Shown one piece after another: positions 4,866 to 36,938 of a DNA stretch of 64,000 nt. How positions within the stretch are numbered: the first letter of the stretch is position 1; the number at the start of each line of letters is the position of its first letter. The notes under the pieces are model-generated. The model saw only the letters and a program-made list of their open reading frames with translations. It had not been told where the DNA came from and did no database searches. The stretch is from Anaerohalosphaeraceae bacterium. Its GTDB lineage: Bacteria; Planctomycetota; Phycisphaerae; Sedimentisphaerales; Anaerohalosphaeraceae. The stretch is taken from positions 296,058 to 360,057 of the forward strand of contig OY775912.1 in assembly GCA_963675155.1 (NCBI GenBank), read 5' to 3'. The translations under genes and the position numbers were made by a program.

Positions 4866-5328
4866 CTAGAAGTTCTGCCGCGTGTTGCAAATACGGTCAC
4901 ATCCCCGGGAGCGGTCCATGAGACCGTTTGGCGAGGAGTATTTAACCGTTTACTCTGAAATGAGTTACGTTGAATTCAGCAGAGAAGCAGAATTTTTGAA
5001 ACCCCTGCTAACAAATGGGGAAATCATCTGTTGCTTTTCGAATGACGCTGTAAGTCCTTGTCTTGTCGTTATTAGTCATTTATTTTAAAGTACTTACGGA
5101 ATTCCTTGACAGGCTGGAACCCCGTATCTCGCGGTTCAGTTTTTTCTCTGACAAATCTTCCCATCGGTTTCGGCGGCCTCCTGAACATTTTGATCATCCA
5201 CCCTAGAAAAATCCGATAAAGAGAAAAATCGTGAATTGTTTTGCACAAACTCCATATAAAATGGCTTTTCTATTACAGACGAGGCAATAAGATACACGCA
5301 TCACATTTTTGAACGAGGAATATGTATT

Positions 5329-5853
5329 TTGAACGAGGAACAAAAAAAAGATATCAAGGGGCCAGAATTTGTAAGGTTGCTGACGGCAAACCAAAACAGA
5401 ATCTCTGCCTATATTTCAGGACTTGTTCCTAATTTCAACGATGCGGATGATATCCTTCAGGAAACGACTGCTATGATGTGGGCAAGAGCGGAAGATTTCA
5501 CTTCCGGGACGGATTTTGCTGCCTGGGGAGTTCGGATTGCATATTATAAAATTCTTGATTACCGGAAAAAGAAGCGTCGCGAGGGGAAATTACTCTTTTC
5601 GGATGAAATGTTTAGCCGGATTGCAGAAAAGGCTCCGACCCGTGTTGGCAAAACAAATACTTATATTGAGAAGCTTCGAGAGTGTACCGACAAACTTCAG
5701 TTGCGGGATAAAGATCTTCTCAATTTACGTTACTCAAATGGCCTGAGCGTTAAAAAAATCTCACTTCGCATCAATTACAGTATTCGAACAGTTTATTATG
5801 ATTTGTCTCGTATTCATGGATTATTGTTAAATTGTATAGAGCGTCCTGAATAA
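5329..5853 (+). CDS. ECF-type sigma-70 family RNA polymerase sigma factor
   Basis: Region 2 (DADDILQETTAMMWARAEDF...FAAWGVRIAYYKILDYRKKK) and region 4 HTH (LRYSNGLSVKKISLRINYSIRTVYYDLSRI). TTG start embedded in a 14-bp direct repeat. Stop overlaps the anti-sigma start (ATGA). Confidence 0.85.
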   Translation: MNEEQKKDIKGPEFVRLLTANQNRISAYISGLVPNFNDADDILQETTAMMWARAEDFTSGTDFAAWGVRIAYYKILDYRKKKRREGKLLFSDEMFSRIAEKAPTRVGKTNTYIEKLRECTDKLQLRDKDLLNLRYSNGLSVKKISLRINYSIRTVYYDLSRIHGLLLNCIERPE

Positions 5854-7541
5854 TGAAAAGTTCAATTAAAGAAAAAACTCAGTTTCGCTGTTTACTCATG
5901 AAGTCGCTGGATGGGACTATCTCCAAAGAAGAAACGGCCGTGTTTAATCAACTCGTTTTCGATTTTCCGGATTTAGAGGAGTATTACTTTAAATGTATGG
6001 ATTTACATTCAGCGCTGGATGGTATTCAAACGCTTGCTGAAATGAGTCATTTGGATGTTGAAGTTGAGCAAAAAAACGCGTTTCTGAGTGAGTTGGGTGA
6101 ATATGAAAAGATTGCCCCCACAATGGAAGTTCTCTCTGCTCCGGAAGACAAGGAATGGTTTCCGGTTAAGAAAATAAGCTATGCAGGGTCCGTCCGGAAG
6201 ATTAACAAGTTTTCATTGGTGACTGCCGTTCTTGGCACGGCTGCGTTTATTCTGATGATTCTGTATGTCCGTATCGTCCCTAATGCTCCCTATCAAGTGG
6301 CGACCATTTGTGATTCCATTGACGCGGAGTGGTCTGCGGGCTTGCCGATTAGCTCGGGAACACGCATTTCTTCTGATTCCCGGCCCATTCAATTGACCCG
6401 GGGAATTATGAAATTGCAGACAGATAGTCAGGTTGAGATTACCTTAGAAGCACCGACAGAATTTTATTTCTCGTCAGACTATAACATGGTAATGAATTAC
6501 GGGAAACTGTTCGCACACGTTTCCAGGCAGGGATTGGGTTTTACAGTTGCGACGCCGAATTCGAGAATTACCGATTTAGGGACTGAATTTGGAGTTCTGA
6601 GTCAAATCGACGGAACCACCGAAGTACACATGTTCAAAGGGAAGGCGAACGTATTTGGGGGCGGTAAAAATCAGACGAAAACATCTCAAATTTTAACCGC
6701 CGGTTCGGCGGTAAGTGTGAGTCGGCATAATTCGACGGTACAAGAAATCTCGCTGGATAAAGGGGTTGTCGTTCGAGATATCATTGGTTCGGAAAATAAG
6801 TTGGCCTGGAGGGGGCAGACAACCCTTCGTTTTGCCGACTTGTTACTAGGCGGCAACGGATTTGGAACAGCGTCTTTGCCGAATATTGAATACGATCCTG
6901 CCGCAGGTACGGTGGTTTCAAGTGGTGTGGCTGGATACAGAAGCGGTCCGGGAAAGAGGAAGGCAATTTCACAAAGTCCCTATCTTGACAGTATCTTTGT
7001 CCCCGGCAGCGAGGATGGCGATGTTATTGTTAGCTCGCTTGGCCATAAATTTGGTGAATGTCCTGAAACGAGTGGCTTGTATTTCGCAAATGTTTTATGT
7101 CAAAAAAACTTTCTATTTTTTGATCCGATCCAACAAGTTTTTAAGCAGTCCAGACAGCAATTTGAAGATTCGGGATTTCTTTACCTGCACAGCAACGTCG
7201 GCCTGACGATTGACCTGAATGCGGTTCGACGGGCTGTTCCCGGCCTTTCTGTCTCTTCGTTCTCTGCTTTTGCCGGGATTATCCGTACCTGGAATGATAC
7301 GCCGGATAGTTCAGAGGCAGATGTATGGATTTTAGTGGATGGCCAGGTTCGGTCTTCTCGGAAAGCTCTTCGAGCTGACGAGGGATATGATATTCATATT
7401 GATATCACTGATGAGGATCGTTTCTTAACCTTGATTGTTACGGATGGCGGAAAAACTTATTCGGAGGGCTTCCCCGCCAATCATTATGATACGTGTGGTT
7501 TTGCCGAACCGGTTTTTAATTTGGTATTGCCTTCAAAATAA
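5853..7541 (+). CDS. FecR-family transmembrane anti-sigma factor with a C-terminal beta-sandwich sensor domain
   Basis: Single TM helix (FSLVTAVLGTAAFILMILYV). FecR-like block (GFTVATPNSRITDLGTEFGVLS...EVHMFKGKANVF). C-terminal domain shared with 24733..26466 (DVWILVDGQV...RFLTLIVTDG). Translationally coupled to the sigma factor. Confidence 0.75.
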   Translation: MKSSIKEKTQFRCLLMKSLDGTISKEETAVFNQLVFDFPDLEEYYFKCMDLHSALDGIQTLAEMSHLDVEVEQKNAFLSELGEYEKIAPTMEVLSAPEDKEWFPVKKISYAGSVRKINKFSLVTAVLGTAAFILMILYVRIVPNAPYQVATICDSIDAEWSAGLPISSGTRISSDSRPIQLTRGIMKLQTDSQVEITLEAPTEFYFSSDYNMVMNYGKLFAHVSRQGLGFTVATPNSRITDLGTEFGVLSQIDGTTEVHMFKGKANVFGGGKNQTKTSQILTAGSAVSVSRHNSTVQEISLDKGVVVRDIIGSENKLAWRGQTTLRFADLLLGGNGFGTASLPNIEYDPAAGTVVSSGVAGYRSGPGKRKAISQSPYLDSIFVPGSEDGDVIVSSLGHKFGECPETSGLYFANVLCQKNFLFFDPIQQVFKQSRQQFEDSGFLYLHSNVGLTIDLNAVRRAVPGLSVSSFSAFAGIIRTWNDTPDSSEADVWILVDGQVRSSRKALRADEGYDIHIDITDEDRFLTLIVTDGGKTYSEGFPANHYDTCGFAEPVFNLVLPSK

Positions 7542-7664
7542 TTTCAACGATGGAGTTGCATCGGAGGCAGGGGGGCACCAAATCGCGATATGTTTTTTAA
7601 GGTCAGGAGGTCTTGGCAGTCGGCCAAGTCAATGAGATGAGAAACATTTTTTGAAAGGAGAATT

Positions 7665-9032
7665 ATGAAAAGGCAAATATTATTATCTGTATTGCTGGTA
7701 CTGATGTTCAGTGTTTCAAGTCAGGCGAATAAGTTAGCGAATGGAGGGTTTGAAGATCCCGCGACCCCTCTTGGATCGTGGAATGGTTTGACGCCGATTC
7801 CCAACTGGAAGTTTGAGGGATATATACCGACCGGTGGCTGGCAAGCTGGTTTAATTGGAAATGACGTCGGTCGCGTTCGGGATATTCAGGGCGCTCGAAT
7901 CTGGGGCAATGACACGGTCCTTTACCAGGAGTTTGATGTCGATGCCGGGGCCGGTTATGTGTTCAGTGTATATTGTCATAACAACGCTGACGGTGATACT
8001 GTTGATGGGATATTCCATCTGGTGGCGTCATTTTACGATGCAGCCAATGCGGAGCTTTCGTCGCAGATTGTCGCATCATTTGATACGGCAGTGGAGCCCA
8101 CACAAGCGTTGGGTGAATGGGTCCAGATTTCCGGTTCCGTTACTGCTCCCATCGGTGCGGTGACAGGTCGAGTTGGTTTGGACCTGGATGACCGGACCAT
8201 TGGCGGCATGGACTTTGACGATGTTTCAGTGCGTAAAGCAGGGGCCTACAATCCGATTCCATCTGACGGTGCCAATGTAGGGCTTGATTTAATTGCATTG
8301 AGTTGGTCCAATCCGGCTGCCAAAGATCCAAACAACAATACGGTGACATGTGATGTATATTTCGAAGAAGACGATGGGGACCCGAATATCCTCAGTCCCG
8401 CAATCGTAACCGGGCTTGAGGATAATACGCTTCTTCTCGCTGACTATGGGATTGTCTTACAGGACGACACTGTTTATCACTGGCGTGTGGATTGTACGGA
8501 TCCCAATAATGGCGGTCCCCTATTCTATGAGGGTGAGACCTGGACTTTCCAGGTTGCTGATTTGCCTCCGGTTGTGACGGTTGGCGATGATGAGTATCTC
8601 TGGCTGAACATGGATGATGGTGACGGTGATCCGGGCAAGGTGACTCTTACGGTATCTGGTACCTATACGGATGACGGAAAGAGCCCGATTACGCGCGTTG
8701 AGTGGATTGCTCCGGATGGCGGGACAATTGTCAGCCAATCAGAGCCGATCCCCGGAACCATTGAGGCGGTTGTCGAGATAGCAGCCCCCACGGTGCCGGA
8801 CTCATTAACGTTGACCCTGGAAGTTGAAGATTCTGCCGGAATAGGGGCAGATTCCCTGGAAGTCACGGTATACAACGACTGTCTTGCAGCGGCGGTGGCT
8901 GATGGTGATATCACTGAAGCTGAATCGCTGGGTGATATCAATCGTGATTGCAATGTAAATCTGGACGATTTCGCGATTCTGGCCGAAAAGTGGTTGCAGT
9001 GTCTGTCGGCAAAAGGCGGATGCACCCCGTAA
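7665..9032 (+). CDS. secreted carbohydrate-binding (CBM4/9-like jelly-roll) protein with Ig-like region and C-terminal dockerin-like EF-hand module
   Basis: Signal peptide MKRQILLSVLLVLMFSVSSQA. NGGFEDP...W motif typical of CBM-like beta-sandwich. C-terminal GDINRDCNVNLDDFAILAEKWLQC. Good RBS aaggag. Confidence 0.6.
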   Translation: MKRQILLSVLLVLMFSVSSQANKLANGGFEDPATPLGSWNGLTPIPNWKFEGYIPTGGWQAGLIGNDVGRVRDIQGARIWGNDTVLYQEFDVDAGAGYVFSVYCHNNADGDTVDGIFHLVASFYDAANAELSSQIVASFDTAVEPTQALGEWVQISGSVTAPIGAVTGRVGLDLDDRTIGGMDFDDVSVRKAGAYNPIPSDGANVGLDLIALSWSNPAAKDPNNNTVTCDVYFEEDDGDPNILSPAIVTGLEDNTLLLADYGIVLQDDTVYHWRVDCTDPNNGGPLFYEGETWTFQVADLPPVVTVGDDEYLWLNMDDGDGDPGKVTLTVSGTYTDDGKSPITRVEWIAPDGGTIVSQSEPIPGTIEAVVEIAAPTVPDSLTLTLEVEDSAGIGADSLEVTVYNDCLAAAVADGDITEAESLGDINRDCNVNLDDFAILAEKWLQCLSAKGGCTP

Positions 9033-9258: not shown

Positions 9259-10554
9259 ATGAATAAAAAAAGATTTCATTATAAAATTGTATTCATCACC
9301 CTATTTTTGATAGCGGTTTCGTCTCATGGCTTTGCTCGCAGTCTACTCTGGAGAGATGAATTTGACGGCACTTCGCTTGACACAACAAAGTGGACTGTCG
9401 TGAATGCTGAAGATTGGTATGATTGCTGGTATGCACCGCATAATGTTGAAGTTTCCGAAGGGACGCTCAAATTACATTCACGGGAGCAATTGTATAACGG
9501 CAAGCACTGGACCGGAGCAAAGCTGGAAGGGAAATATCATCCTCAATATAAATACTTAGAAGCAAAGATCCGGCATTCTTTGCCTGATAGCCATATATGG
9601 TCGGCATGGTGGACAATCGGCTGGACCGGTACGACATGGCAATGGCCCCCGGAATTTGATATCTTCGAATTTGCGATACAATGGGAAACCACTCCTTTTC
9701 AAACCTATCATTGGGATAGAGGGTACGGGCACGAGATGGACGGTGAAATAACCGGACTTGACGAAACCGAGTGGCATACTTACGGAGTTTATTGGACGGC
9801 TGCACAATCGGCGGTTTTTTATGTGGATGGTGTGCGGTCCTATCAACCCTACGGACCGGCCGAAAGCGCCCAAATGCAGGCGTTACTGATTTTATCATCT
9901 TCTCCTAACAGAGATGACCACTACAGTGGCTGTTCTTTGGGAGATTTTGAGGTGGATTATGTGCGTGTGTATGACAGTCCGCCGGACCACGACATGTCGG
10001 TGACAAATCTGGCACTGAATAAACCCGTTCAGGTTTCATCATCTCAGTCCGGTCATGACGGCAGTTATGCTGTTGACGGAGATGCCGGTACCCGCTGGGC
10101 ATCTGACTGGAGCGATCCTCAGTTTATTGTTGTAGATCTGGGCCAAGAAACACCCTTTAGCATTGTCCGTCTCAATTGGGAAAACGCCTATGCCAGCCGG
10201 TTTCTGATTCAGGTTTCCAACGATAACTCGACCTGGACAACGGTTGTGAATGAACAAAATGGCTCCGTTGGAATTCGTGAATACTCCGTGGACGCTAACG
10301 CAAGGTACCTGAAAATTTTGGGGACCGAGCGAGGTACCGAATGGGGTTATTCATTGTATGAGGTCCAGATTTACCAATGCAGAAAATATGATCTGGCTTT
10401 TTTTGATTCAATGGCTTATAATTGGTTAGAAACCGATTGCGGTTCAAATAACTGTGAGGGCGCCGATATGGATTTTGATAACGATGTGGATATCATCGAC
10501 CTTCAGGAGTTGGCTTTTCAATGGCTAGGCCTCAACTGCTTCGGTAATTCATAG
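9259..10554 (+). CDS. GH16 family beta-glucanase (laminarinase-like) + F5/8 type C (discoidin/CBM32-like) domain + dockerin-like C-terminus
   Basis: Signal peptide. WRDEFDG start of GH16. Intact catalytic motif E-F-D-I-F-E (PPEFDIFEF). Discoidin signature (AVDGDAGTRWASDW...FIVVDLG). C-terminal DMDFDNDVDIIDLQELAFQWL. Confidence 0.8.
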   Translation: MNKKRFHYKIVFITLFLIAVSSHGFARSLLWRDEFDGTSLDTTKWTVVNAEDWYDCWYAPHNVEVSEGTLKLHSREQLYNGKHWTGAKLEGKYHPQYKYLEAKIRHSLPDSHIWSAWWTIGWTGTTWQWPPEFDIFEFAIQWETTPFQTYHWDRGYGHEMDGEITGLDETEWHTYGVYWTAAQSAVFYVDGVRSYQPYGPAESAQMQALLILSSSPNRDDHYSGCSLGDFEVDYVRVYDSPPDHDMSVTNLALNKPVQVSSSQSGHDGSYAVDGDAGTRWASDWSDPQFIVVDLGQETPFSIVRLNWENAYASRFLIQVSNDNSTWTTVVNEQNGSVGIREYSVDANARYLKILGTERGTEWGYSLYEVQIYQCRKYDLAFFDSMAYNWLETDCGSNNCEGADMDFDNDVDIIDLQELAFQWLGLNCFGNS

Positions 10555-10667
10555 GAACGGATTTCAACAAGAAATAAGTCGAATAACTCAAGAAACTGGA
10601 GCGTGGAAGTCTATTTTTGAATTTTCGAGATGATTTGGAATTGTTAAATGATTGGCAGGATTCAACC

Positions 10668-13600
10668 ATGAGAATGTCGTGTTTCAGAGTAGCGTCCCTT
10701 GTTGTTTTGGTTTTCAGTCTTTTAACTTATGCGGCATCTCCTGTCGGCGACCTTGACGGGAATTACTATGTGGACTTTGAAGACCTTGTCCTTTTTGCGC
10801 AGCAATGGATGCAGTACCCTGATTGCTATGGTGCTCCGGGTTGTGGGGATGTTGAAGGCGATGATGGCGTGAATCTCGAAGATTTCGCACTCATTGCATT
10901 TAATTGGCAAATACGTGGCGAGATCGCACTGGTGATTAACGAAGTGATGGCTTCCAATGACAGCACGTTGGAAGATCCGGATGAACCCGGAGAATACCCG
11001 GACTGGATCGAAATTTATAATTATGGGGATGATACGGTATCTTTGTCGGGGATGTATCTGCGGGACGACAACAATACATGGCAGATCCCGGCAGGCATTT
11101 CCATAGAACCCGATGAGTATGTTTTGTTCTGGGCTGATGATGATGACGAGCAGGGCGATTATCATACCACTCTGAAATTGGGCAAATCTGATGATGAAGT
11201 GACGCTTGTGTCGTATGATGGAGAAACCATTGTTGATTCGATGAGCTATTCAGATCAGGTAACAGATGTTTCTTACGGACGATATCCGGATGCTTCGGAT
11301 GACTGGTATTTGATGGACGCACCTTCCCCCGAATTGACGAACGCGATGGGAATGGCCGGTAAGGTCTATTTTTCAAGCCTGGGCGGAACTTTTACATCAA
11401 GCTTTTCCCTGACCCTGTCAACAACGTCACCGACGGCACAGATTCGTTATACTACTGATGGCTCGATTCCATCTGCTTCTTCATTTCCGTATACTGCGCC
11501 GATAACGATTTCAAATTCTCAGACCCGACGCATCAGGGCCAGGGCCTATGATGCGTTGCTGGCGCCCGGTCCGGTGCATACGGAGGTCTATGTTCCCCTG
11601 GCGGCGGATATACAGACCTTCACTTCGAATCTTCCAATTGTCATTCTGGACACTCATGGAAGCGGCATCAGTAACACAACATACGGCGAAATATCTTCGA
11701 TCTTTGTCGATGTCGACAAAGACACCGGTGTATCCAGCATGACTGACTTCTCCGATTTTGCAGGAAGAGGTGCAGCAAAGATTCGCGGGGAAAGTTCCCA
11801 GGCATGGCCCAAGAAACAGTACTCCCTGGAACTCTGGGATGAGAACGACATGGACGCGAAAGCTTCATTACTGGGAATGCCGTCGGGATCGGATTGGATT
11901 TTGAATGCGCCATACGGCGACAAAACACTTTTGCGGAATGTGTTGGCATTTAAGTGGTCAAATGATATTGAAAACGGTTTTGCTGCTCCGGGGACCAAAT
12001 TGGTCGAAGTCTTCCTGAACGATGACGGCGGAAACTGTTCATATGCAGACTACAACGGAATTTATGTTTTGATGGAAAAAATCAAAGTGTCAGACAATAG
12101 AGTCGATATCGGTTCTCTCGATTCCGGTGACATTGCCGAACCGGATGTAACCGGCGGATATATTTTAAGGGTCGACAAGAATAATGGGCAGGAAACGTTT
12201 ACAACAAATGCAAACATGGTCGGATCAATTCAGTATTACGATCCGGACGAGACCGCTCTTTCCGCCACACAAAAAAGCTGGATACAAAACTGGCTTAATA
12301 CCTTTGAAACCCATCTTAACGCAAGTGATTTCAATGATCCCCTGGCAGGTTATGCACACTATATCGATGTCGAAAACTTCATCGAATATGATATGATACT
12401 GGAGTTATTTAAAAATGCAGATGGTTTTAAGCTTAGCACTTATTTTCATAAAGAGCGAAATGGGAAGCTGAGGTTTGGACCTCAATGGGACTTTAATTTC
12501 AGTTCCGGAAATACAACAAATCCAGATTGGTGGTATCCCTCGTATTTTTCCAAGGCGTCTGCAACTGAAGAAGGGTGGTTCTGTGATCAACCCGATTTTA
12601 AAGTGTACAGCTGGCATCAACGGTTATTGCAGGATCCCGATTATATGATTCGTTATGCAGATAAATGGTTTGAACACAGAGAAGATAAACTCTCCGATGC
12701 ACAAATAACCGCAGATATCGATACTTACTATTCGCTGCTGACAACCAATCATGCATTTGCGGGTGGCGCAGACAATGCGGCAGACAGAAACTTTGCCAAA
12801 TGGAACATACTTAACAATCAGGAGTGGTGTAATTACTACTTCGGATACAACGCCCAATTGAGCGTTTATGATCCCTACACCGGCCAAACAACGCAAATAC
12901 CTCCAGAAGAACGCGAACAAGCCAACATGCCGCACACCTATCATATGGAAACCGAATGGCTGAAGAACTGGTTTAACGGCGAAGGAACTCCTACAGGGAG
13001 TGAATGGTATCAAACTGATTATTCTGACAGGATCGGGAAACTTGACGCGTTATGGCAATCCGACCGGAATATTTGTATGCCGCCGACGCTGAATATTAAC
13101 GGTACGCCCATGAATTTGGGAGGCCGGGTCGATCTGGGTGACGGTCTGACAATGAGTTCTGCCTGTGCGGGGACCATTTATTACACGACTGACGGTACGG
13201 ACCCGAGAACCTGGACCACTGTGTCGAATCCGGGCTTCGCTGCAACACTGGTGGCGGAAGACGCGGCTAAAGCGGTCTTGATCCCCACCGAAACGGTCAG
13301 TAACGATTGGAAGGGAGGCAATGAACCCTTTGATGATTCAACCTGGACAGATTTCGATTTTATTGCCGGTAAACCCGGAAGTGTTGGATATGAAAATTCG
13401 AGCGGTTATCAGGAGTTTATCAGCTATGACGTTAAAAATGACCTGCTTGGAAATAACAACACGCAAAGCTGTCTGATCAGAATCCCGTTTTTTGTTGATT
13501 CCGCCCAGTTGGCGGAGATGACTTATCTCACCCTTCGTGTAAGGCACGATGACGCATTTGTGGCTTACATTAACGGTATCGAAGTCTATCGAAGTTCACT

Positions 13601-29056: not shown

Positions 29057-30649
29057 TTATATATTGTTGATTTCTTTCCATGAAATGCTGAATTTAGCTA
29101 AATATTTCTTTAATCGGTCTGCATCATTGGGCCGGGCCTTTTGTGTTCTGGAGACATTGAAAAGCTGTCGTCCTGCCTCAGATAGACTTTTGGCTTTTGA
29201 ACATACTTTTATGACATGAGCCAGTTGCGGCCTGTCAAATTCGTCAATTTTAGCCAGTCTTTCTTTTCCGAGGAGTTTTTCCAAGAGATCGGTATTGTTA
29301 TCTTGTCTGGCCGATTGCCAGGATTTAAGGAGTCTCTGGATTTCTTCTTCCACAATATCTTCGCAGATTCGGCCTCCGGGGGCCAGTGTGGCCATGCGGG
29401 TAATCGCCCCGATCAGATCACGGAAATTCGATTTCCACATTGCTTGGCCCGACGTACTGAATGACAGGAAGCGTCTTTGAGCTTCTTTATTAAATCTGAC
29501 ATGCGTGCCGGCTTTACTGGCGTATTGATCCAGTTCGTACTGGATATTAGGCTCGATGTCTTCGCGGCGATCCTTCAAACCCGGCAGGTGAAACGTCCAC
29601 AGGTTGATTCTGGCCAGCAGGTCTTCGCGGAATTGCCCGGAATTGATATTGGCCTGTAAATCTCTATTGGTCCCACAGATCAGCTGAAAGTCGCTGCTGA
29701 CCTCTTTGTCAGATCCAACGGGCAGGAATTTCTTTTCTTCGATGGCTCGAAGCAGCATCGATTGCTCCTCAATGCCCAGTTCGCCAACTTCATCGAGGAA
29801 TAGAATACCGCCATCGGCTGTTTTTAAGAGACCCTCTCTGGCCTGTACAGCACCTGTAAACGCTCCTTTTGTATGCCCAAAGAGGGCTGACATCGCTGCG
29901 TCACCCCGAATGGTTGCACAGTTGACCTCTACAAAATCCCCTCTGAGTTTTTTGTGCGTCTTTTTAAGCTCAAAGATTCGTTGGGCTAGCTGGGATTTAC
30001 CGGCTCCGGTAGGTCCCATGAGCAGAATAGGATCTGTTGTCCGGGCTCCAACATGCTCGATCCGTTCAATCAGGGCATTGAAATTCTTATTCTTTGTTTG
30101 GATACCGGATTTTAAAAATGAGATATCGTCACACAACTGCTGCTTGAACCGCATCGCGATTCGGTCATACTTGGACAGGTCTAAATCGATAATTTGATAA
30201 CTGCCCGGTCCCTGATCTGTTTCTCGTTTTGGAGGGCTTGTTTGCAGCAGTCTGCCGGGGAAGTAGCGAGATTCGGTTAACAGGAACTCGCATATCTGAG
30301 AAACGTGTGTCCCTGTTGTGATATGGACTAAATACTCTTCATGGTCAGGGTCAAAGTCATAGTCTTTCGAAAAGTCATGGAGGACGCCGTACACCTCCTG
30401 GAAGTCCCAGGGATTATCCCAGTCAATGACATGAGGGACCACCTTTGTTTCCGGGGAAACAAGACCGATGTCTTTGATCACGCTTTTAGCGATCTTCTCG
30501 AATTTCCGTTGAAAGAGTAATTCAAAACGATCGACCAGCAGTTCTTCGTGTTGGCAGATTGAGACCGTTGGCCGCCAGAAGTTCCAGCGATCCGGTCCTT
30601 GCCCGCGGTCGAGATTAGGCCCCAACAATCCGATGACTACATTCTTCAT
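29057..30649 (-). CDS. rtcR: RtcR: sigma-54-dependent transcriptional activator with N-terminal CARF-like domain
   Basis: AAA+ sigma-54 interaction domain with GAFTGA (HTKGAFTGA), Walker A GPTGAGKS, ILFLDEVGEL. Long N-terminal non-receiver domain typical of RtcR CARF. Divergent from the rtcA/rtcB block. Confidence 0.85.
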   Translation of the reverse strand: MKNVVIGLLGPNLDRGQGPDRWNFWRPTVSICQHEELLVDRFELLFQRKFEKIAKSVIKDIGLVSPETKVVPHVIDWDNPWDFQEVYGVLHDFSKDYDFDPDHEEYLVHITTGTHVSQICEFLLTESRYFPGRLLQTSPPKRETDQGPGSYQIIDLDLSKYDRIAMRFKQQLCDDISFLKSGIQTKNKNFNALIERIEHVGARTTDPILLMGPTGAGKSQLAQRIFELKKTHKKLRGDFVEVNCATIRGDAAMSALFGHTKGAFTGAVQAREGLLKTADGGILFLDEVGELGIEEQSMLLRAIEEKKFLPVGSDKEVSSDFQLICGTNRDLQANINSGQFREDLLARINLWTFHLPGLKDRREDIEPNIQYELDQYASKAGTHVRFNKEAQRRFLSFSTSGQAMWKSNFRDLIGAITRMATLAPGGRICEDIVEEEIQRLLKSWQSARQDNNTDLLEKLLGKERLAKIDEFDRPQLAHVIKVCSKAKSLSEAGRQLFNVSRTQKARPNDADRLKKYLAKFSISWKEINNI

Positions 30650-30786: not shown

Positions 30787-30802
30787 CTGGCACGCAGGTT
30801 GT
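30787..30802 (+). promoter_or_regulatory. sigma-54 (-24/-12)-type promoter candidate, oriented toward the tRNA-like element / SPFH / tRNA array / rtcAB
   Basis: TGGCACG-CAGG-TTGTA versus consensus TGGCACG-N4-TTGCW; the -12 element is GT instead of GC. Lies ~140 bp from the rtcR start, on the opposite strand. Confidence 0.45.
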
Positions 30803-31000
30803 ACATAGTAGATCAAGTAATTAACGCTCTTATGAAAATTAAAGATGAAGTTTCCGCCGGGCCAGCGGCATACCAGTGACAGCCATGCTGTTTCATTGCG
30901 TATGTACCGTGAGTGGGTTCTAACGAAGGTGGAACTATTCGAGCGGCGAGAATTGGAAAATGCGACCAATGTCAATTCTTTCGATTCCCGCATCGGATCC

Positions 31001-31085
31001 CAATGGTTAGCTCAGAGGGTAGAGCATCGGGCCGTTAACCCGAAGTCGTGGGTTCGATTCCCACACCGACCGCCGCGAGAGCGGC
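31001..31085 (+). ncRNA. tRNA-like element with canonical D-arm, anticodon arm (GTT, Asn-type) and T-arm but no good 7-bp acceptor stem, followed by a GNRA-capped hairpin
   Basis: TAGCTCAGAGGGTAGAGC D-arm. TCGGG-CCGTTAA-CCCGA anticodon arm. GTGGG-TTCGATT-CCCAC T-arm. The 5' strand CAATGGT pairs only 4/7 with the 3' strand ACCGACC. Then GCCGC-GAGA-GCGGC. Confidence 0.4.
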
Positions 31086-31448
31086 TCAAAGAAGGGCTCG
31101 AAGGAAACATTTGGTCTATCTGGCAGTTGACAGGTTTTTCTGACTCACCTCGTTGGCCTGTCAACACCATTTGTAAACGCTCTGCAGTATGCGGATACCG
31201 CTTACTTCTGGCCAAGAGCAAAGACGTCGATGACGAACAAGCAATGACGGATTTCGCTGGTAATAGGAAATCTGAAATTGCGACCTTCCGAATCGCCTCT
31301 TACCTTGTTCAAAGTGAACTTAAGCATGCTCCGCGTGAAAGATGGGGCAATAGTCAAATGTTTCCTGAAAGCCTCTTATGACAAATGCCCGGCGATAAAT
31401 GAAAGAATAAATACAAGGTGAGAAAATAGAATAAAAAGGAGAATTAAA

Positions 31449-32552
31449 ATGAGTATTAAAACGATCAAAATCCATTCGTATGAAAAGGGATTCCACTTCC
31501 GTAACGGTGAGCTGATTGGTTTGCTGGACGAAGGTCGCCACTGGTTTCTGAAACCTGTTGCGAAGGACCAGGTTTATGTATCAAACCTGCGAGATCCTTG
31601 GATTCGCCATAACGACCTTGACTTGATTGTTAAGTCCGGCGTTTTGGAAGGCAAGGCTCAGGTTCTGGACCTTCAGGACTTCCAACGCGGGTTGGTCTGG
31701 GTGGATGGTCGTTTTGAAGCGATTGTGTCCGGCGGAATCTATGCGATCTGGACGACGCATCGTGCCGTGAAAGTGGAAATCATTGATGCACGGGACGTTC
31801 GGTTTAACCACCGTGACATCAGCGTTATCCTGAAATCCTCAGGTGCCAAAGAGCTTTTGGATGAGAACACCGTCGCTGAAGATCACGTGGGTGTTTACTT
31901 CCAGAATGGCCGCTATGTGGAAACGCTGGATGCCGGGCGCTATGTGTTCTGGAAAGGCATTGAGAAAGTACATGTTTTTCAGGTGGATCTGTCCGAGTTG
32001 TCTTTGGATATCTCCGGCCAGGAAATCATGACGGCGGATAAAGTGACTTTGCGTATGAATGCGGTGGTTGCTTACACCGTTCAGGATGCTGAAAAGGCCG
32101 TTCGTTCGACAACGGATGTCAAGCAGTCGCTGTACCGCGAAACTCAGTTGGCCTTGCGAGCGATTGTTGGGTCACGTCAGCTGGATGAATTGCTGGCTGA
32201 TAAGGATGCTCTGGCTGATGAACTACAAGGTCAGATTGCAGAGCGAGCCGAGTCATTCGGTTTGAAGCTGACAGCTCTGGGAATTCGAGATGTGATCCTG
32301 CCCGGTGAAATGAAGAATCTGTTGAATAAGGTGACTGAGGCTAAAAAGGCGGCAGAAGCGAACCTGATTGCTCGCAGAGAAGAGACCGCCGCGATGCGTT
32401 CTCAGGCAAACACAGCCAAGTTGCTGGAAAACAACCCTGTATTGATGCGGCTGCGTGAACTGGAAGTACTGGAAAACATCTCAACCAATTCCAAGTTGAA
32501 TGTGGTGCTGGGTGAAAAAGGGCTGGCCGATAGAGTGGTCAACCTGTTGTAG
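31449..32552 (+). CDS. SPFH/band-7 (stomatin/flotillin-like) domain protein
   Basis: SPFH-like core (LRMNAVVAYTVQDAEKAVRSTTDVKQSLYRETQLALRAIVGSRQLDELLADKDALADEL...LKLTALGIRDVILPGEM) and coiled-coil tail. RBS aaaaaggag. Confidence 0.7.
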   Translation: MSIKTIKIHSYEKGFHFRNGELIGLLDEGRHWFLKPVAKDQVYVSNLRDPWIRHNDLDLIVKSGVLEGKAQVLDLQDFQRGLVWVDGRFEAIVSGGIYAIWTTHRAVKVEIIDARDVRFNHRDISVILKSSGAKELLDENTVAEDHVGVYFQNGRYVETLDAGRYVFWKGIEKVHVFQVDLSELSLDISGQEIMTADKVTLRMNAVVAYTVQDAEKAVRSTTDVKQSLYRETQLALRAIVGSRQLDELLADKDALADELQGQIAERAESFGLKLTALGIRDVILPGEMKNLLNKVTEAKKAAEANLIARREETAAMRSQANTAKLLENNPVLMRLRELEVLENISTNSKLNVVLGEKGLADRVVNLL

Positions 32553-32618: not shown

Positions 32619-32692
32619 TGCTCCGTGGCCCAACTGGAAGAGGCAGCGGGTTTTGAACCCGTTCGTTGCAGGTTCGATTCCTGCCGGAGCTG
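32619..32692 (+). tRNA. tRNA-Gln (anticodon TTG)
   Basis: Manual fold: acceptor TGCTCCG/CGGAGCT (U1.U72 mismatch). Anticodon arm GCGGG-TTTTGAA-CCCGT. T-arm GCAGG-TTCGATT-CCTGC. Confidence 0.65.
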
Positions 32693-32697
32693 AATGA

Positions 32698-32772
32698 CTG
32701 GATGTAGGGCAGCCTGGGTAGCCTACTCGCCTTGGAAGCAAGACGTCGTTGGTTCGAATCCAACCATCCAGA
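32698..32772 (+). tRNA. tRNA-Pro (anticodon TGG)
   Basis: Acceptor CTGGATG/CATCCAG perfect. D-arm GGGCAGCCTGGGTAGCCT. Anticodon loop CTTGGAA. T-arm GTTGG-TTCGAAT-CCAAC. Confidence 0.7.
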
Positions 32773-32774
32773 CT

Positions 32775-32847
32775 GTGACCGTAGCTTAATTGGTAAAGCA
32801 CCAGATTGTGATTCTGGGGAGTACGGGTTCGAGTCCCGCCGGTCACC
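32775..32847 (+). tRNA. tRNA-His (anticodon GTG); no encoded G-1
   Basis: Acceptor GTGACCG/CGGTCAC, discriminator C. Anticodon arm CCAGA-TTGTGAT-TCTGG. T-arm ACGGG-TTCGAGT-CCCGC. The nucleotide at -1 is T. Confidence 0.65.
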
Positions 32848-32867
32848 CTTTGAAAAGAGAATGTTGA

Positions 32868-32938
32868 GCGTTGACGGTATAATGGCAACATACGGGCTTG
32901 CCAAGTCTGTGATGGGAGTTCGAATCTCCCTCGACGCA
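32868..32938 (+). tRNA. tRNA-Gly (anticodon GCC)
   Basis: Acceptor GCGTTGA/TCGACGC. Anticodon loop TTGCCAA; the anticodon stem has two G-U pairs. T-arm GGGAG-TTCGAAT-CTCCC. Confidence 0.6.
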
Positions 32939-32941
32939 ATC

Positions 32942-33012
32942 GGCCTCGTCGTCTAGTGGCAGGACACCAGATTTTCGATCTGTGAACGTGAGTTTGATTC
33001 TCACCGAGGCTA
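32942..33012 (+). tRNA. tRNA-Glu (anticodon TTC)
   Basis: D-arm TCGTCTAGTGGCAGGAC typical of tRNA-Glu. Anticodon loop TTTTCGA. T-arm GTGAG-TTTGATT-CTCAC. Acceptor GGCCTCG/CGAGGCT (G1.U72). Confidence 0.6.
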
Positions 33013-33018
33013 TTAATC

Positions 33019-33092
33019 GGCTCTGTAGCCCAATTGGCAGAGGCGGCGGACTTAGAATCCGCTCAGTGTAGGTTCGACTCCTACCGGGGCTA
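33019..33092 (+). tRNA. atypical tRNA: Gln-like body with anticodon TAG (would read CUA Leu codons) and a short class-I variable loop
   Basis: D-arm GCCCAATTGGCAGAGGC and T-arm GTAGG-TTCGACT-CCTAC closely resemble the tRNA-Gln at 32619. Anticodon arm GCGGA-CTTAGAA-TCCGC. 5-nt variable loop, unlike class-II tRNA-Leu. Acceptor has three G-U pairs. Confidence 0.45.
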
Positions 33093-33097
33093 GTAAA

Positions 33098-33169
33098 GGA
33101 ACGGTAGCTGAGATGGTTTAGCGAAAGCCTGAAAAGGTTCAGACGTTGGTTCGAACCCATCCCGTTCCA
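33098..33169 (+). tRNA. tRNA-Phe-like (anticodon GAA) with weak anticodon stem and one T-stem mismatch; possibly a pseudo-tRNA
   Basis: Acceptor GGAACGG/CCGTTCC perfect. Loop CTGAAAA. The anticodon stem AAAGC/GGTTC has only 3 Watson-Crick pairs. Confidence 0.45.
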
Positions 33170-33254
33170 CTTAATGGAAATATAATTTGAATAACCTAAT
33201 TAAGATGGATACAATCTCATAGACAACAATAAAGGAGTTTAAAGGAATACAGCA

Positions 33255-34274
33255 ATGATTACGATTGATGGATCATTTGGAGAAGGTGGCGGACAAATTC
33301 TTCGCAGCAGCGTGGCATTGTCGCTGATTACCGGGAAACCATTTCAAATCGAGAATATTCGAGCCGGACGTAAAAAGCCCGGTTTGATGCGGCAGCACTT
33401 AACCGCAGTTAATGCGGCCGTTGAAGTGGGTGCCGCTGATGTGAGCGGTAATGCGATTGGATCGCAGAGCTTGACCTTCGCACCGAAAGCAATTAATGCG
33501 GGTACTTACAAGTTTGCGGTTGGGACTGCAGGCAGCACAACGCTTGTGCTGCAAACAATTCTGCCAGCTTTGCTGATTGCTGATAAACCCTCTGAGATTA
33601 CATTGGAAGGTGGAACACACAATCCGTTTGCTCCGCCATTCAGCTTCCTGGAAAAGGTGTTCGTTCCTGTTCTGAATAAAATGGGACCTGAGATCAGCCT
33701 GGACCTTCAACGCCCGGGTTTTTATCCTGCCGGTGGTGGATGCTTTACGGTCAAGATTCAACCTAAAGCGAAGTTGGACAGAATTGACATCATCGAGCGA
33801 GGTGAGATTGTCAGCCGATCTGCTAAGGCCTATGTGGCTTATCTGTCGGAGAAAATCGCCAGCCGGGAACTGAGAGTGATACGGAACAAGCTTTCGTGGG
33901 ACGAAAAGGACACGGAGATTATCAAAGTACGGGATTCAAATGGTCCGGGTAATATCGTGACGGCAGAGATTCAAAGTGAGAATATTACTGAGCTATTTAC
34001 TGGTTTTGGAATGAAGGGTTTGCCTGCGGGTAAAGTGCCGCTGGGGATGGTCGATGAAGCTCGGGAGTACTTGGCCGCAGGGGTTCCTGTGGCAAGACAC
34101 CTGGCCGATCAGTTGATGATTCCGATGGCCATGGCTGGCGGTGGAACGTTTAGAACGCTGCCGTTGACGCTGCATTCGACGACGAATATCGAGATTCTGA
34201 AAAAGTTCTTGGATGTTCAGGTTGAAGTCACCAAACTGGAAAAAGATTTTTATGAAATCAATATCATCGCGTGA
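33255..34274 (+). CDS. rtcA: RNA 3'-terminal phosphate cyclase RtcA
   Basis: N-terminus ITIDGSFGEGGGQILRSSVALSLITGKPFQIENIRAGR, typical of RtcA. ~339 aa. RBS aaaggag. Confidence 0.9.
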   Translation: MITIDGSFGEGGGQILRSSVALSLITGKPFQIENIRAGRKKPGLMRQHLTAVNAAVEVGAADVSGNAIGSQSLTFAPKAINAGTYKFAVGTAGSTTLVLQTILPALLIADKPSEITLEGGTHNPFAPPFSFLEKVFVPVLNKMGPEISLDLQRPGFYPAGGGCFTVKIQPKAKLDRIDIIERGEIVSRSAKAYVAYLSEKIASRELRVIRNKLSWDEKDTEIIKVRDSNGPGNIVTAEIQSENITELFTGFGMKGLPAGKVPLGMVDEAREYLAAGVPVARHLADQLMIPMAMAGGGTFRTLPLTLHSTTNIEILKKFLDVQVEVTKLEKDFYEINIIA

Positions 34275-35704
34275 TGATTGACGATGGAGATAATGAAATG
34301 AAAACACGACAATTAGCGAATCTTGGAATCCCTCGCGGGGAAACCATGAAGATGACTCAGGACGCGATTAAGCAATGGCTTCAATCGTATGACGGCTATC
34401 TGAATAATGCGGCGATCTGCCAGAAGATCAATGACCTGGCCAAGAATCCATCTGAATATCTGGAAGATGAGCACTTTGGTCAAATTGCTAAAATACTGAA
34501 TGAAAGCAAGGAGGCACGAGCGACTTATGTCGATCGCCCAGAGCCGGCTTACTACCAGCGGTGGGGTTCGGATCTGGAAGATAAGGCGATTGAGCAGATG
34601 GAAAATGCGTGCAAACTGCCGATTTCCATTTGTGGTGCCTTGATGCCGGATGCTCATGTGGGTTATGGCTTGCCGATCGGCGGCGTTCTGGCAACTCAAG
34701 ATGCGGTTATCCCATACGCCGTTGGGATGGACATTGCCTGCCGTATGAAAATGACGGTGTTGGATTTGCCGGTTAATGCGTTGACGGGACAAGCGGATCG
34801 TTTGAAAAATGCTCTTGAGACTGAAACGCGTTTTGGTGTTGGGGCATCGTTCAAAAAATACCGTGAACATGACGTGATGGATGAAGACTGGTCGTTTAGC
34901 CCGATTGTTAATCGATTTAAGGACAAAGCCTGGAGTCAGCTTGGAACCAGCGGAAGCGGAAACCATTTTGCCGAATTTGGAACATTGATGCTGGATCAGG
35001 ATGATCTTGGGCTTAAGGCCGGGACTTATCTAGCCTTGCTGAGTCATAGTGGAAGCCGGGGGATTGGAAACGAAATCGCTACGTACTTCAGCAAGCTGGC
35101 AGTCCAGAAGCATCCGGAATTGCCAAAAGAGCTGATGCATCTGTCATGGTTGGATACCGATAGTGCCGAGGGCCAGGAATACTGGCAGGCGATGGAACTG
35201 ATGGGACGCTATGCGGCGGCCAATCATAAGCTGATCCATCGGCATATTGCCAAAAACCTGAACGTTAAGGTGCTTTTGGATGTGGAAAACCACCATAACT
35301 TTGCCTGGAAAGAAGTGCATGACGGGCAGGAAGTAATTGTTCACCGTAAGGGTGCGACGCCTGCCGATGACGGTGCGCTTGGAATTATTCCCGGATCAAT
35401 GGGGACATCCGGCTATGTGGTTCGCGGAAAAGGTAAGCCCGAATCGCTAAACTCTGCTTCTCATGGAGCAGGCCGGAAGATGAGCCGTAAGAAAGCCAAA
35501 GAGACATTTACCTGGCATGATGCCAAGAAATTTCTCAAGGATCGCGGTGTTCAGCTGATCTCTGCAGGACTGGATGAGGTCCCAATGGCGTATAAAGATA
35601 TCGAGGAAGTGATGGCTGCTCAGAATGATCTGGTTCAGCCAATCGCTCGCTTCGATCCAAAAATCGTAAAAATGGCCCCAGCCGGAGAAAGACCGGAGGA
35701 TTAA
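34271..35704 (+). CDS. rtcB: RNA-splicing ligase RtcB (3'-phosphate/5'-hydroxyl RNA ligase); the called ORF has an N-terminal extension
   Basis: RtcB blocks (MPDAHVGYGLPIGGV, HNFAWKEVHDGQEVIVHRKGATPA, IIPGSMGTSGYVVRG, SASHGAGR). Start overlaps the rtcA stop (ATGA). Confidence 0.9.
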   Translation: MMIDDGDNEMKTRQLANLGIPRGETMKMTQDAIKQWLQSYDGYLNNAAICQKINDLAKNPSEYLEDEHFGQIAKILNESKEARATYVDRPEPAYYQRWGSDLEDKAIEQMENACKLPISICGALMPDAHVGYGLPIGGVLATQDAVIPYAVGMDIACRMKMTVLDLPVNALTGQADRLKNALETETRFGVGASFKKYREHDVMDEDWSFSPIVNRFKDKAWSQLGTSGSGNHFAEFGTLMLDQDDLGLKAGTYLALLSHSGSRGIGNEIATYFSKLAVQKHPELPKELMHLSWLDTDSAEGQEYWQAMELMGRYAAANHKLIHRHIAKNLNVKVLLDVENHHNFAWKEVHDGQEVIVHRKGATPADDGALGIIPGSMGTSGYVVRGKGKPESLNSASHGAGRKMSRKKAKETFTWHDAKKFLKDRGVQLISAGLDEVPMAYKDIEEVMAAQNDLVQPIARFDPKIVKMAPAGERPED

Positions 35705-35706
35705 CA

Positions 35707-36279
35707 ATGTGTCATTTTCTAACAGCTGTATTATCAGCAGACGCTGATATTGAAAATTGTAGTTTAATTGCAGAGAAATTCCAGCGAATTTTTGAACCTG
35801 TTTCAAATCAACACGTTCAAAAACAGCTGGAACCTAAGATGAAATACTATTGCATGACAAAGGGTAATTGTGATTGCGGCACAATATGGGGCAAGGGGAA
35901 CGGATCTGGAGATATCAAGAAGAAAATGAATCGTAAACTTAAAAAGCTTCGAAATAAAGGATGGTCTGAAGCTAAAATAAAACGATTTATAGAAAGCAAA
36001 AATCAGGCTTCTCAAGGTGATCAAGCAAGTCTCAAGAAACAACATGTAGATTGTGAAACGTTAGCACAGCAATGGATATCATTTGTTTCGGAAATCATTG
36101 ACCAAGGTTTATCAGACTATATGGGGATTCTTCTGCATTGGTACTCCGGAAATCTTGAAAAGGAAAAAGTTGATATCCAGCAAATAGAGAAAATTACGTT
36201 GAGTGAGCTCACCCCAACCTTTATATGGAAAGCCAAAGAAGACGTGCTGTATATCTTTAAGAAAAATAGGGGTGTATAG
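35707..36279 (+). CDS. hypothetical Cys- and Lys-rich protein (unknown family), translationally coupled between rtcB and prfH
   Basis: ATG 3 nt after the rtcB stop. Stop TAG overlaps the GTG start of the next gene (tagtg). CMTKGNCDCG cluster and basic stretch KKKMNRKLKKLRNKGW. Locally lower GC than the neighbours. Confidence 0.5.
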   Translation: MCHFLTAVLSADADIENCSLIAEKFQRIFEPVSNQHVQKQLEPKMKYYCMTKGNCDCGTIWGKGNGSGDIKKKMNRKLKKLRNKGWSEAKIKRFIESKNQASQGDQASLKKQHVDCETLAQQWISFVSEIIDQGLSDYMGILLHWYSGNLEKEKVDIQQIEKITLSELTPTFIWKAKEDVLYIFKKNRGV

Positions 36280-36938
36280 TGACAAATTGGTTACAAGTTA
36301 CCTCAGGGCGTGGACCAGATGAATGCTGTTGGGTTGTGGCCAGGGTTGTCGAGGCAATCACTCAAGATGCGTCGGCAAATGGCTATAACTTAAATGTATT
36401 GGAAGTCGTGCCGGGAAGTAAGCCGGATTTGTTTAAGTCAGCACTGCTTTCTATTGAAGGCGACGGTTTATCTGAATTCTTGTCTCAATGGGAAGGGACG
36501 ATTCAGTGGATTGGAAAAAGTCAATTCCGTCCCAAGCATAAGCGGAAAAACTGGTTTGTGGGTGTCACATCTTATGAAGCTCCTGAAGAAGTTGATTATA
36601 GCTGCAGTGAATTTCGATTTGAAAGCATGCGATCATCCGGTCCCGGCGGTCAGCACGCTAACAAAATCGAATCGGCCGTGCGTGTCACCCATATGCCCAC
36701 GGGAATTAATGCCATCGCACAGGAAGAACGATCCCAGCATATGAATCGAAAATTGGCATTAAGCCGGTTGCATAAAAAACTCCAGCAACAAAAGCAGAGT
36801 ACTGAAATGCAGCTCCAGCAGGAACGATGGGATGAACATAATGCCTTGGAAAGAGGCAACCCCATCCGAGTGTATGAAGGTCTCAAATTCAAGCTAAAAA
36901 GAATAGACAAAAATAAAGAGTTAAGGATTATTCGATGA
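36279..36938 (+). CDS. prfH: PrfH-type (RF-H) peptide chain release factor homolog with GGQ motif, lacking the RF domain 1
   Basis: SSGPGGQHANKIESAVRVTH GGQ domain. N-terminal SGRGPDECCWVV...GTIQWIG...RPKHKRKNWF pattern characteristic of the RF-H family. ~219 aa. Encoded immediately after rtcB, as in described rtcB-prfH pairs. Confidence 0.75.
   Translation: MTNWLQVTSGRGPDECCWVVARVVEAITQDASANGYNLNVLEVVPGSKPDLFKSALLSIEGDGLSEFLSQWEGTIQWIGKSQFRPKHKRKNWFVGVTSYEAPEEVDYSCSEFRFESMRSSGPGGQHANKIESAVRVTHMPTGINAIAQEERSQHMNRKLALSRLHKKLQQQKQSTEMQLQQERWDEHNALERGNPIRVYEGLKFKLKRIDKNKELRIIR

Follow-up and report, generated by a model that had tools for sequence, protein, structure and literature searches.

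A mobile single-gene family member inserted between rtcB and prfH in an RtcR-type operon of an Anaerohalosphaeraceae bacterium

What is the gene that separates rtcB from prfH in the RtcR operon of an Anaerohalosphaeraceae bacterium, and is it a regular part of the RtcB/PrfH pathway? The window analyzed here is a stretch of 64,000 nucleotides (nt) from contig OY775912.1 (assembly GCA_963675155.1), and the gene in question is an open reading frame (ORF) of 190 amino acids (aa) at positions 35707..36279 on the + strand. An earlier note on this DNA had proposed it as a co-translated accessory factor of RtcB/PrfH rescue and repair. We find that the ORF is a real and conserved member of a mobile single-gene family, that it entered this RtcR operon as a lineage-specific insertion with coupled translation, that other family members turn up repeatedly, although not in most cases, in Rtc loci, and that relatives can dispense with the gene. 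A link of the ORF to RNA damage is plausible.

The ORF is fitted closely to both of its neighbors. The rtcB stop codon (TAA, 35702-35704) is followed by a 2-nt spacer (CA) and by the ATG of the ORF at 35707, and a GGAGG ribosome-binding site (35695..35699, +) lies in the last rtcB codons, 7 nt upstream of that ATG. At the other end, the TAG of the ORF (36277-36279) shares 1 nt with the GTG start codon of prfH (36279-36281; taGtg). The position, the 190-aa size, and the overlap with prfH are thus as the earlier note stated from the sequence. Its tight coupling to rtcB also stands; the ATG does not follow the stop by 3 nt as it had said, since it begins at the third base after a 2-nt spacer. From rtcA through prfH, the + strand showed no terminator-like site, and the ORF is called as a gene in two assemblies. 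The GC content of the ORF is 0.35-0.38, relative to ~0.50 in rtcA and rtcB and 0.45 in prfH, in line with the greater AT richness described previously; at third codon positions, its GC content is 0.33 versus 0.43-0.51 in rtcA, rtcB, and prfH.

A fast word-indexed search returned only 2 relatives and suggested that the ORF was an orphan, a status that an exhaustive profile search overturned. With a three-sequence profile, HMMER recovered 1066 cluster representatives at an E value of ≤1e-3, 669 at ≤1e-10, and 109 at ≤1e-30. The members are nearly all 180-195 aa long (~185 aa) and align end to end. All of their source names read "hypothetical protein" with one exception, CAS02858.1, which is a "putative integron gene cassette protein." The size of this family (1066 homologous clusters), together with a ratio of nonsynonymous to synonymous substitution rates (dN/dS) of 0.25 against an ortholog in another genome, bears out the earlier claim that the ORF is real. 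Its co-transcription and translational coupling are likewise supported.

The marks by which the ORF joins this family are a Met-Cys N terminus, a C55-D-C57-G-T loop, a K84-G-W-S-E turn between two helices, and an H144-W-Y strand, the last three corresponding to the family's CDCGT, KGWSE, and HWY motifs. Met-Cys opens 139 of 152 sequences and Val-Cys another 4 of the 152. C2, C55, C57, and W86 are invariant in an alignment of 137 sequences, in which T6, N34, D56, T59, G62, G85, W123, G140, L142, H144, Y146, and D179 are at least 90% conserved; H144 reaches 99% in the A2 alignment. The earlier note had drawn attention to a cysteine cluster and a basic stretch, and both are present in the ORF (C49-x5-C55-D-C57 and KKKMNRKLKKLRNKGW, aa 71-86, respectively). 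Across the family, only C55 and C57 of that cluster are conserved and C49 is not; the conserved third cysteine is Cys2.

Curated libraries did not recognize the family, nor had the earlier note. In Pfam-A, the best match of the ORF (E = 0.025) fell below the cutoff and no family recurred among 137 members; in NCBIfam, the ORF had no match and none recurred among 49 members. PADLOC gave no significant match (HamA at E = 0.0035, 14 bits only), PHROGs gave no consistent match for the ORF or its family, and a profile search of PDB sequences returned only a weak helix-turn-helix-like Tfx match over the GWS-KI motif (E = 0.04). Archease is a known RtcB cofactor; the ORF matched neither the archease family profile nor its fold.

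The earlier note had called for structure prediction combined with Foldseek, and this yielded a confident model with no solved or viral structure matched. An AlphaFold2 model built from a 49-sequence alignment reached a mean predicted local distance difference test score (pLDDT) of 90.6 and a predicted template modeling score of 0.77; an earlier model from 3 sequences was poor (pLDDT of 60). In the model, a strand beginning at Cys2 and two short helices precede a second strand that runs into the CDCGT loop; a helical arm follows (63-83, the K84-G-W-S-E88 turn, and 88-132), and then three strands, one of which carries H144-W-Y146. Foldseek searches against the PDB and BFVD gave nothing at E ≤ 0.001 (best E values of 0.48 and 0.37); its weak matches were to small alpha/beta domains of the ferredoxin-like or PII-like kind. 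Averaged over 137 members, the net charge of the arm (63-115) is ~+5.4, and the core segments are slightly acidic. Judging from the order of the strands, C2, C55, C57, and H144 would meet at one edge of the sheet, and the metal or RNA binding suggested by the earlier note would fit the three invariant cysteines and the basic helical arm.

An ortholog lies in L001 (10001-10573), the L-numbers denoting loci compared with the window. It is 87% identical, occupies the same operon position, and comes from a 4.5-Mb metagenomic contig. The ORF dN/dS of 0.25 in this pair, with 20/7/27 differences at the three codon positions, compares with 0.05-0.09 for the flanking genes. The synonymous rate (dS) of the ORF, 0.27, is 3-6 times lower than the 0.94-1.67 of rtcA, rtcB, and prfH, and the nonsynonymous rate is equal; third positions differ at 14% in the ORF versus 35-47% in those genes. 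A recombination block was not supported as the cause, as the identity profile lacks a sharp block. Possible causes are later segment exchange, a constraint on composition where third positions are AT-rich, or a second function that overlaps the gene at the nucleotide level.

The history of the insertion can be read from eight loci that encode close relatives of the window RtcB (L126-L133, 70-85% RtcB identity), none of which carries an intact copy of the ORF. In L126 and L129, rtcB directly abuts prfH; the L126 junction reads GGAGGATTAATG, its TAA overlapping the ATG. In an alignment of the window, L001, L127, and L126, a GGAGG identical to that of the ORF sits before prfH in L126, which lacks the ORF. 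In L127 (9411-9530), only the first 31 ORF codons (68% identical) remain between rtcB and prfH, followed by a deletion, and in L128 a 591-aa PcfJ/SF0329-like gene fills the slot. L130-L133 have no prfH. Given the direct rtcB-prfH junctions and the L127 remnant, the ORF was therefore inserted here in a common ancestor of three loci (the window, L001, and L127), and at least one descendant, as the remnant indicates, has lost it again. The insertion fell exactly at the ancestral junction; the ORF took over the existing GGAGG, and prfH now starts on the ORF stop (TAGTG). The idea that the ORF is a regular component of the RtcB/PrfH pathway does not survive these comparisons: the ORF is absent from the eight close RtcB relatives, members of its family adjoin prfH only in the window and L001, and the family occurs as a lone cassette in Xanthomonadales.

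Other genes vary in the same sister operons. A GFA/CENP-V Zn-binding gene lies between rtcA and rtcB in L128 and L129, and an N6-adenine methylase-like gene after prfH and an RNase T-family gene before rtcA also occur; the variable genes of these operons are found at 7409-7819, 9609-11384, and 12036-12461 in L128, 7483-7929 in L129, and 6320-6865 in L132. The rtcB-prfH and rtcA-rtcB junctions both behave as insertion slots. Phage-type integrase genes stand beside related Rtc loci (L126 368-3177, L127 234-3118, and L130 4310-5629), which suggests that the whole RtcR operon lies on or next to mobile islands. L126 additionally has an AbiEi/AbiEii pair.

The wider family is scattered and mobile. 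A scan of one genome per species gave 42 family loci, and a metagenome scan gave 80 more. The 42 loci come from Acidobacteriota, Desulfuromonas, Xanthomonadales, Alteromonadaceae, Verrucomicrobiota, Cyanobacteria, Leptospira, Chloroflexota, Myxococcota, and several Asgard archaea; the distribution is patchy over many bacterial phyla. Viral contigs and phage records held no member, and plasmids held a single record, from Leptospira, with uninformative neighbors. In 61 of 66 loci, the family gene has a lower GC content than the DNA on either side, the mean difference being 4.7 points. In L028 (Luteimonas kalidii), the homolog (4483-5025) sits exactly between two copies (4412-4479 and 5025-5092) of a 68-nt attC-type repeat, which is present in an array at least 12 times. 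In L008 (Marilutibacter chinensis), a comparable but more degenerate array stops just upstream of the homolog, which is apparently a cassette as well. The protein is therefore able to function as a lone cassette.

Some neighborhoods outside Rtc loci deserve mention in their own right. In four loci (L009 ~880-2433, L043, L072, and L113; two of them annotated Acidobacteria), gltX, encoding glutamyl-tRNA synthetase (GluRS), ends 4-8 nt upstream of the homolog, and this linkage persists across considerably diverged copies (neighbor-joining distance of ~0.5). The L003 homolog lies downstream of prfB, encoding release factor 2 (RF2); this locus had been a candidate PrfH-plus-RtcR context and was rejected, since its genes encode a canonical RF2 and an NtrC-type regulator. 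In a Pyrinomonadaceae locus (L005 2247-4096, the same as L064), the homolog has a gene of the glyoxalase/bleomycin-resistance fold on one side and one for an ANT(6) streptomycin adenylyltransferase on the other, with gaps of 32 and 12 nt, in what looks like a small resistance cluster.

Homologs also turn up in Rtc loci of other lineages, among 122 sampled family loci outside the window lineage with 0.79 Mb of stored flanks. In L012 (Alteromonadaceae), RtcR, a tRNA-like element, SPFH, RtcB, and RtcA are followed after a 23-nt gap by the homolog. L004 (Desulfuromonas) has the order RtcR, Ro60, homolog, and YrlA Y RNA (Rfam 75.4 bits, gathering score 69). In L042 (Polyangia), the RtcB is 60% identical to that of the window and is followed 16 nt later by a decayed homolog (6001-6390), family-like over its first 63 codons and degenerate thereafter. 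These three Rtc loci compare with ~0.2-0.4 expected by chance (Poisson P of ~0.001-0.008), an expectation that assumes one Rtc locus per 2-4 Mb. The Rtc system is the only clearly recurrent neighbor of the family across phyla. The earlier note held that its proposal would fall if no homolog were ever adjacent to rtcB or prfH elsewhere and the ORF gave no expression or ribosome-profiling signal; because homologs lie in Rtc loci in L012, L004, and L042, the proposal survives on the first count. In a neighbor-joining tree, the intact Rtc-linked copies do not cluster closely: L004 lies far from the pair formed by the window and L001, and L012 connects to this pair only via a long branch. Since the gene orders differ and the intact Rtc-linked copies form no single close group in the tree, several independent captures by Rtc loci are likely.

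How, then, might the protein act? We favor the reading that it acts on its own to protect or repair components of translation and that it is worth co-expressing in Rtc operons. The ORF product would be a small cytoplasmic protein encoded by a single-gene module that has spread horizontally. Since the ORF lies inside the RtcR operon, it would be made whenever RtcR and sigma-54 turn the operon on, as an optional accessory of the RNA-damage response and not as a subunit needed by RtcB or PrfH. The free N-terminal cysteine, the C55-D-C57 loop, and His144 would form one thiol or metal center at the edge of a small alpha/beta core, and the strict position of the N-terminal cysteine argues that a free amino terminus matters. 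The positively charged arm (63-115), with the invariant W86 and its neighbor G85 at the turn, would dock the protein on RNA or the ribosome, where it would act alone on a damaged or threatened translation component. Autonomous action would account for its usefulness in two settings, alone in an integron cassette and inside Rtc operons.

We put the probability of this reading as a whole, namely, a genuine horizontally spreading single-gene module that serves as an optional RNA-damage accessory through the proposed thiol/metal center and arm, at roughly 0.55. Several observations weigh against it. Outside the window lineage, 119 of the 122 sampled loci show no Rtc gene in their stored flanks, and the other neighbors are heterogeneous (fucosidase, trehalase, isocitrate dehydrogenase, oxidoreductases, GluRS, RF2, and ANT(6), as well as further glycosidases, dehydrogenases, and esterases). 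Two of five Rtc-locus lineages carry decayed copies (L127 and L042), which points to a weak or conditional benefit in those lineages. The ORF dN/dS is 3-5 times that of the flanking genes. The proximity of C2, C55, C57, and H144 follows from strand order alone, and one subfamily has arginine in place of His144. Finally, the biochemical part is inference only, as the family has no homology to any characterized protein. A sharper version of the proposal, in which the family repairs or protects the translation apparatus as a new factor acting by itself, the free N-terminal cysteine and the CxC loop form its reactive thiol or metal center, and the basic arm reaches damaged RNA or the ribosome, is speculative and on balance rather improbable. 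Such a center might capture aldehydic or abasic RNA lesions or reverse a base or ribose adduct; alternatively, it might deliver or guard the metal or the active-site cysteine of RtcB. If true, this version would explain why RtcR operons of several phyla and integrons have recruited the gene, and the rescue-repair pathway of RtcB and PrfH would gain a third activity in the window lineage.

The same observations bear on other explanations. The ORF might be unrelated cargo, i.e., a mobile adaptive or selfish gene (for resistance, detoxification, or immunity, for example) with no role in RNA repair, that settled at an operon junction and is passed on with it, its few other contacts with Rtc genes being coincidental. 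The integron cassettes, the low GC content almost everywhere, the very heterogeneous neighbors (including glyoxalase and ANT(6) in L005/L064 and an Imm1 gene downstream of the homolog in L109), the decay in L127 and L042, and a constraint weaker than that on the flanking genes are all what such cargo would be expected to show. However, three further independent Rtc contexts with different gene orders are found where ~0.2-0.4 would be expected, the L004 copy lies inside a Ro60-YrlA module, and the ORF has stayed intact with both couplings in two genomes whose flanking genes have a dS of ~1; we therefore consider unrelated cargo unlikely, albeit a possibility with real weight. The ORF product might also be an immunity protein or antitoxin that counters an RNase toxin delivered by secretion or contact, its gene staying beside those of the repair enzymes for that damage. 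Immunity genes are typically scattered like orphans, mobile as cassettes, and low in GC content; the Imm1 gene adjoins one family copy, and another has a BrnT/BrnA pair downstream. Nevertheless, no cognate toxin gene is a conserved neighbor of the family loci, PADLOC gave no significant match, and invariant Cys, Asp, and Trp residues with near-invariant His and Tyr, retained from bacteria to Asgard archaea, resemble an active or metal site rather than a fast-evolving surface, making this explanation very improbable.

The reading proposed in the earlier note, that the ORF encodes a dedicated accessory subunit of RtcB-PrfH rescue and repair that binds RtcB, PrfH, or the 30S subunit and is needed for efficient repair, draws on the tight translational coupling to rtcB and prfH, the identical arrangement in L001, the Rtc linkage in other phyla, and a basic arm suited to rRNA binding. 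A needed subunit is hard to reconcile with the restriction of prfH adjacency to the window and L001 and with close relatives that lack the gene (L126 and L129), have another gene in the slot (L128), or keep a remnant (L127). Moreover, the RtcB/PrfH systems of Escherichia coli and C. gingivalis are described as two-protein systems (PMC9304027 and PMC12829566), and the family is found as lone integron cassettes and in Asgard archaea. A dedicated subunit is accordingly doubtful, with a low probability. As for a chance ORF in an AT-rich spacer, its odd composition is all that would speak for it; the 1066 homologous clusters, the high-confidence fold, the purifying selection, the codon-position pattern, and the gene calls in two assemblies refute it for practical purposes.

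The operon into which the ORF was inserted is of the RtcR type. Divergent from it lies rtcR (29057..30649, -), which encodes a sigma-54-dependent activator with an RtcR (CARF-like) N-terminal domain (PF06956 at 6.6e-81; PF00158, Sigma54_activat, at 5.8e-50). A sigma-54-type promoter motif, TGGCAC-N5-TTGTA (30788..30803, +), is the presumed start of the RtcR-controlled transcript. This putative, sequence-based promoter has TTGT as its -12 element, the canonical one being TTGC, and the pattern TGGCAC-N5-TTGT[AT] occurs once per locus by rtcR in eight loci (the window, L001, L012, L126-L129, and L132). The order downstream is tRNA-like RNA, SPFH, seven tRNAs, rtcA, rtcB, ORF, and prfH. The tRNA-like element (31005..31067, +; Rfam RF00005, 53.2 bits, model positions 5-66) lacks acceptor ends, and ARAGORN makes no tRNA call for it. 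Comparable truncated matches, covering model positions 4/5-66/67, occur in L012 (2163-2226), L127 (5183-5248), and L129 (4292-4356), and in the window and L012 the element sits shortly downstream of the promoter motif. It may represent the tRNA-like part of a Y RNA of the YrlA type. A Ro60 gene is absent from the window, yet one is present in L001, L004, and L129. A 178-aa ORF without a Pfam match (30845-31381) runs over the tRNA-like element and is probably spurious.

The SPFH/Band 7 gene (31449..32552, +; Pfam PF01145, 1.5e-31) is a recurrent member of Rtc operons, with an equivalent position in L126-L129, L132, and L012. It is followed by seven tRNA genes (32619..33170, +) called by ARAGORN, for Gln-UUG, Pro-UGG, His-GUG, Gly-GCC, Glu-UUC, Leu-UAG, and Phe-GAA (Rfam 48.7-65.1 bits). 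Arrays of tRNA genes also lie between SPFH and rtcA in L001 (10 genes, 5818-7463) and L129 (several, 3636-6200). CCA is encoded in none of the tRNA genes read in the window. Damage-inducible spare tRNAs in an RNA-repair operon would merit interest on their own. The array leads into rtcA, for the RNA 3'-terminal phosphate cyclase (33255..34274, +; PF01137, 1e-82), and rtcB, for the long form of the RNA ligase (34271..35704, +; PF01139, 6.9e-90). Databases start RtcB at M10, giving 468 aa, and P0201 is 100% identical at that length. Against TIGR03073 (release_rtcB), the window RtcB scores 162 bits, below the cutoff of 271.8, and so is not of the prfH-linked type. On the far side of the ORF, prfH (36279..36938, +, GTG start) encodes a release-factor homolog that scores 257.7 bits against TIGR03072 (cutoff, 166.65) and matches Pfam RF-1 at 9.2e-26. 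At 219 aa, the window PrfH extends ~16 residues beyond the TIGR03072 model and is 7-11 residues longer than those of L001, L126, and L129; it ends in a short basic tail (36890-36938; KRIDKNKELRIIR), and the synteny between the window and L001 stops in the last prfH codons (~36907). A PrfH-CT tail of 26 residues has been described (PMC12829566).

The ORF thus points to a family of >1000 clusters, without annotation or a detectable structural relative, that RtcR operons have repeatedly recruited. RtcR-controlled RNA-repair operons are mosaic, and the natural substrates and helpers of bacterial RtcB are poorly defined. If the family does act on damaged RNA or ribosomes, it would represent a new repair or protection activity and provide a handle on the natural triggers of Rtc systems. 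If not, the rtcB-prfH junction would still illustrate cleanly how an operon junction can take in mobile cargo, since related genomes show the insertion, a remnant of it, and the ancestral state.

Several known systems share individual features with the ORF or its operon. A possible lead comes from proteins that need a free N-terminal cysteine, namely, class II glutamine amidotransferases and other N-terminal nucleophile (Ntn) hydrolases, SRAP/YedK, HypC, and CooT. The ORF family is alike in that essentially every member lacking an N-terminal extension has Cys as residue 2, where the first beta strand begins, accompanied by conserved Asn, His, and acidic residues. No similarity in sequence profile or fold to any of these proteins was found for the family, and two further invariant cysteines in a CxC loop are not a feature of the N-terminal-cysteine families. 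The GFA/CENP-V (PF04828) gene of L128 and L129 is likewise a small Cys-rich accessory in a variable slot, and it has a G-x-C-x-C-G-[ST]-[IV] motif in common with the ORF. Homology between the two was considered and rejected: hhalign aligned 10 columns at a probability of 0.7%, and no member of the ORF family had a PF04828 match in Pfam. With respect to integrons, family members in L028 and apparently L008 are single-gene cassettes with attC-type repeats, whereas the window copy lacks attC and is fused into the operon; its junctions of 2 nt and -1 nt therefore leave no room for one.

The window resembles the rtcB2-prfH two-gene module (Baranov 2006, PMC1586002; Tian 2022, PMC9304027) in having a clear TIGR03072 prfH downstream of rtcB. 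The two genes abut directly in the closest relatives of the window, whereas in the window itself the ORF separates them. The window RtcB also differs from that of the module, being a 468-aa long form below the TIGR03073 cutoff and embedded in an RtcR operon, and the ORF has no counterpart in the characterized rtcB2-prfH systems. In the literature covered, which did not include the survey of Burroughs & Aravind 2016, the ORF family was not found named as a component of Rtc operons. The closest likeness overall is to operons of the Salmonella rsr-yrlBA-rtcBA type (PMC7790460 and PMC4201824), with which the window shares the divergent RtcR, rtcA, rtcB, and tRNA-like/Y-RNA elements, along with a putative sigma-54-type promoter, and its relatives carry Ro60 as well. 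To this arrangement the window operon adds SPFH, the seven-tRNA array, prfH, and the ORF. What is new here is an accessory variant of a known operon type, built on a protein family that is uncharacterized by sequence and fold.

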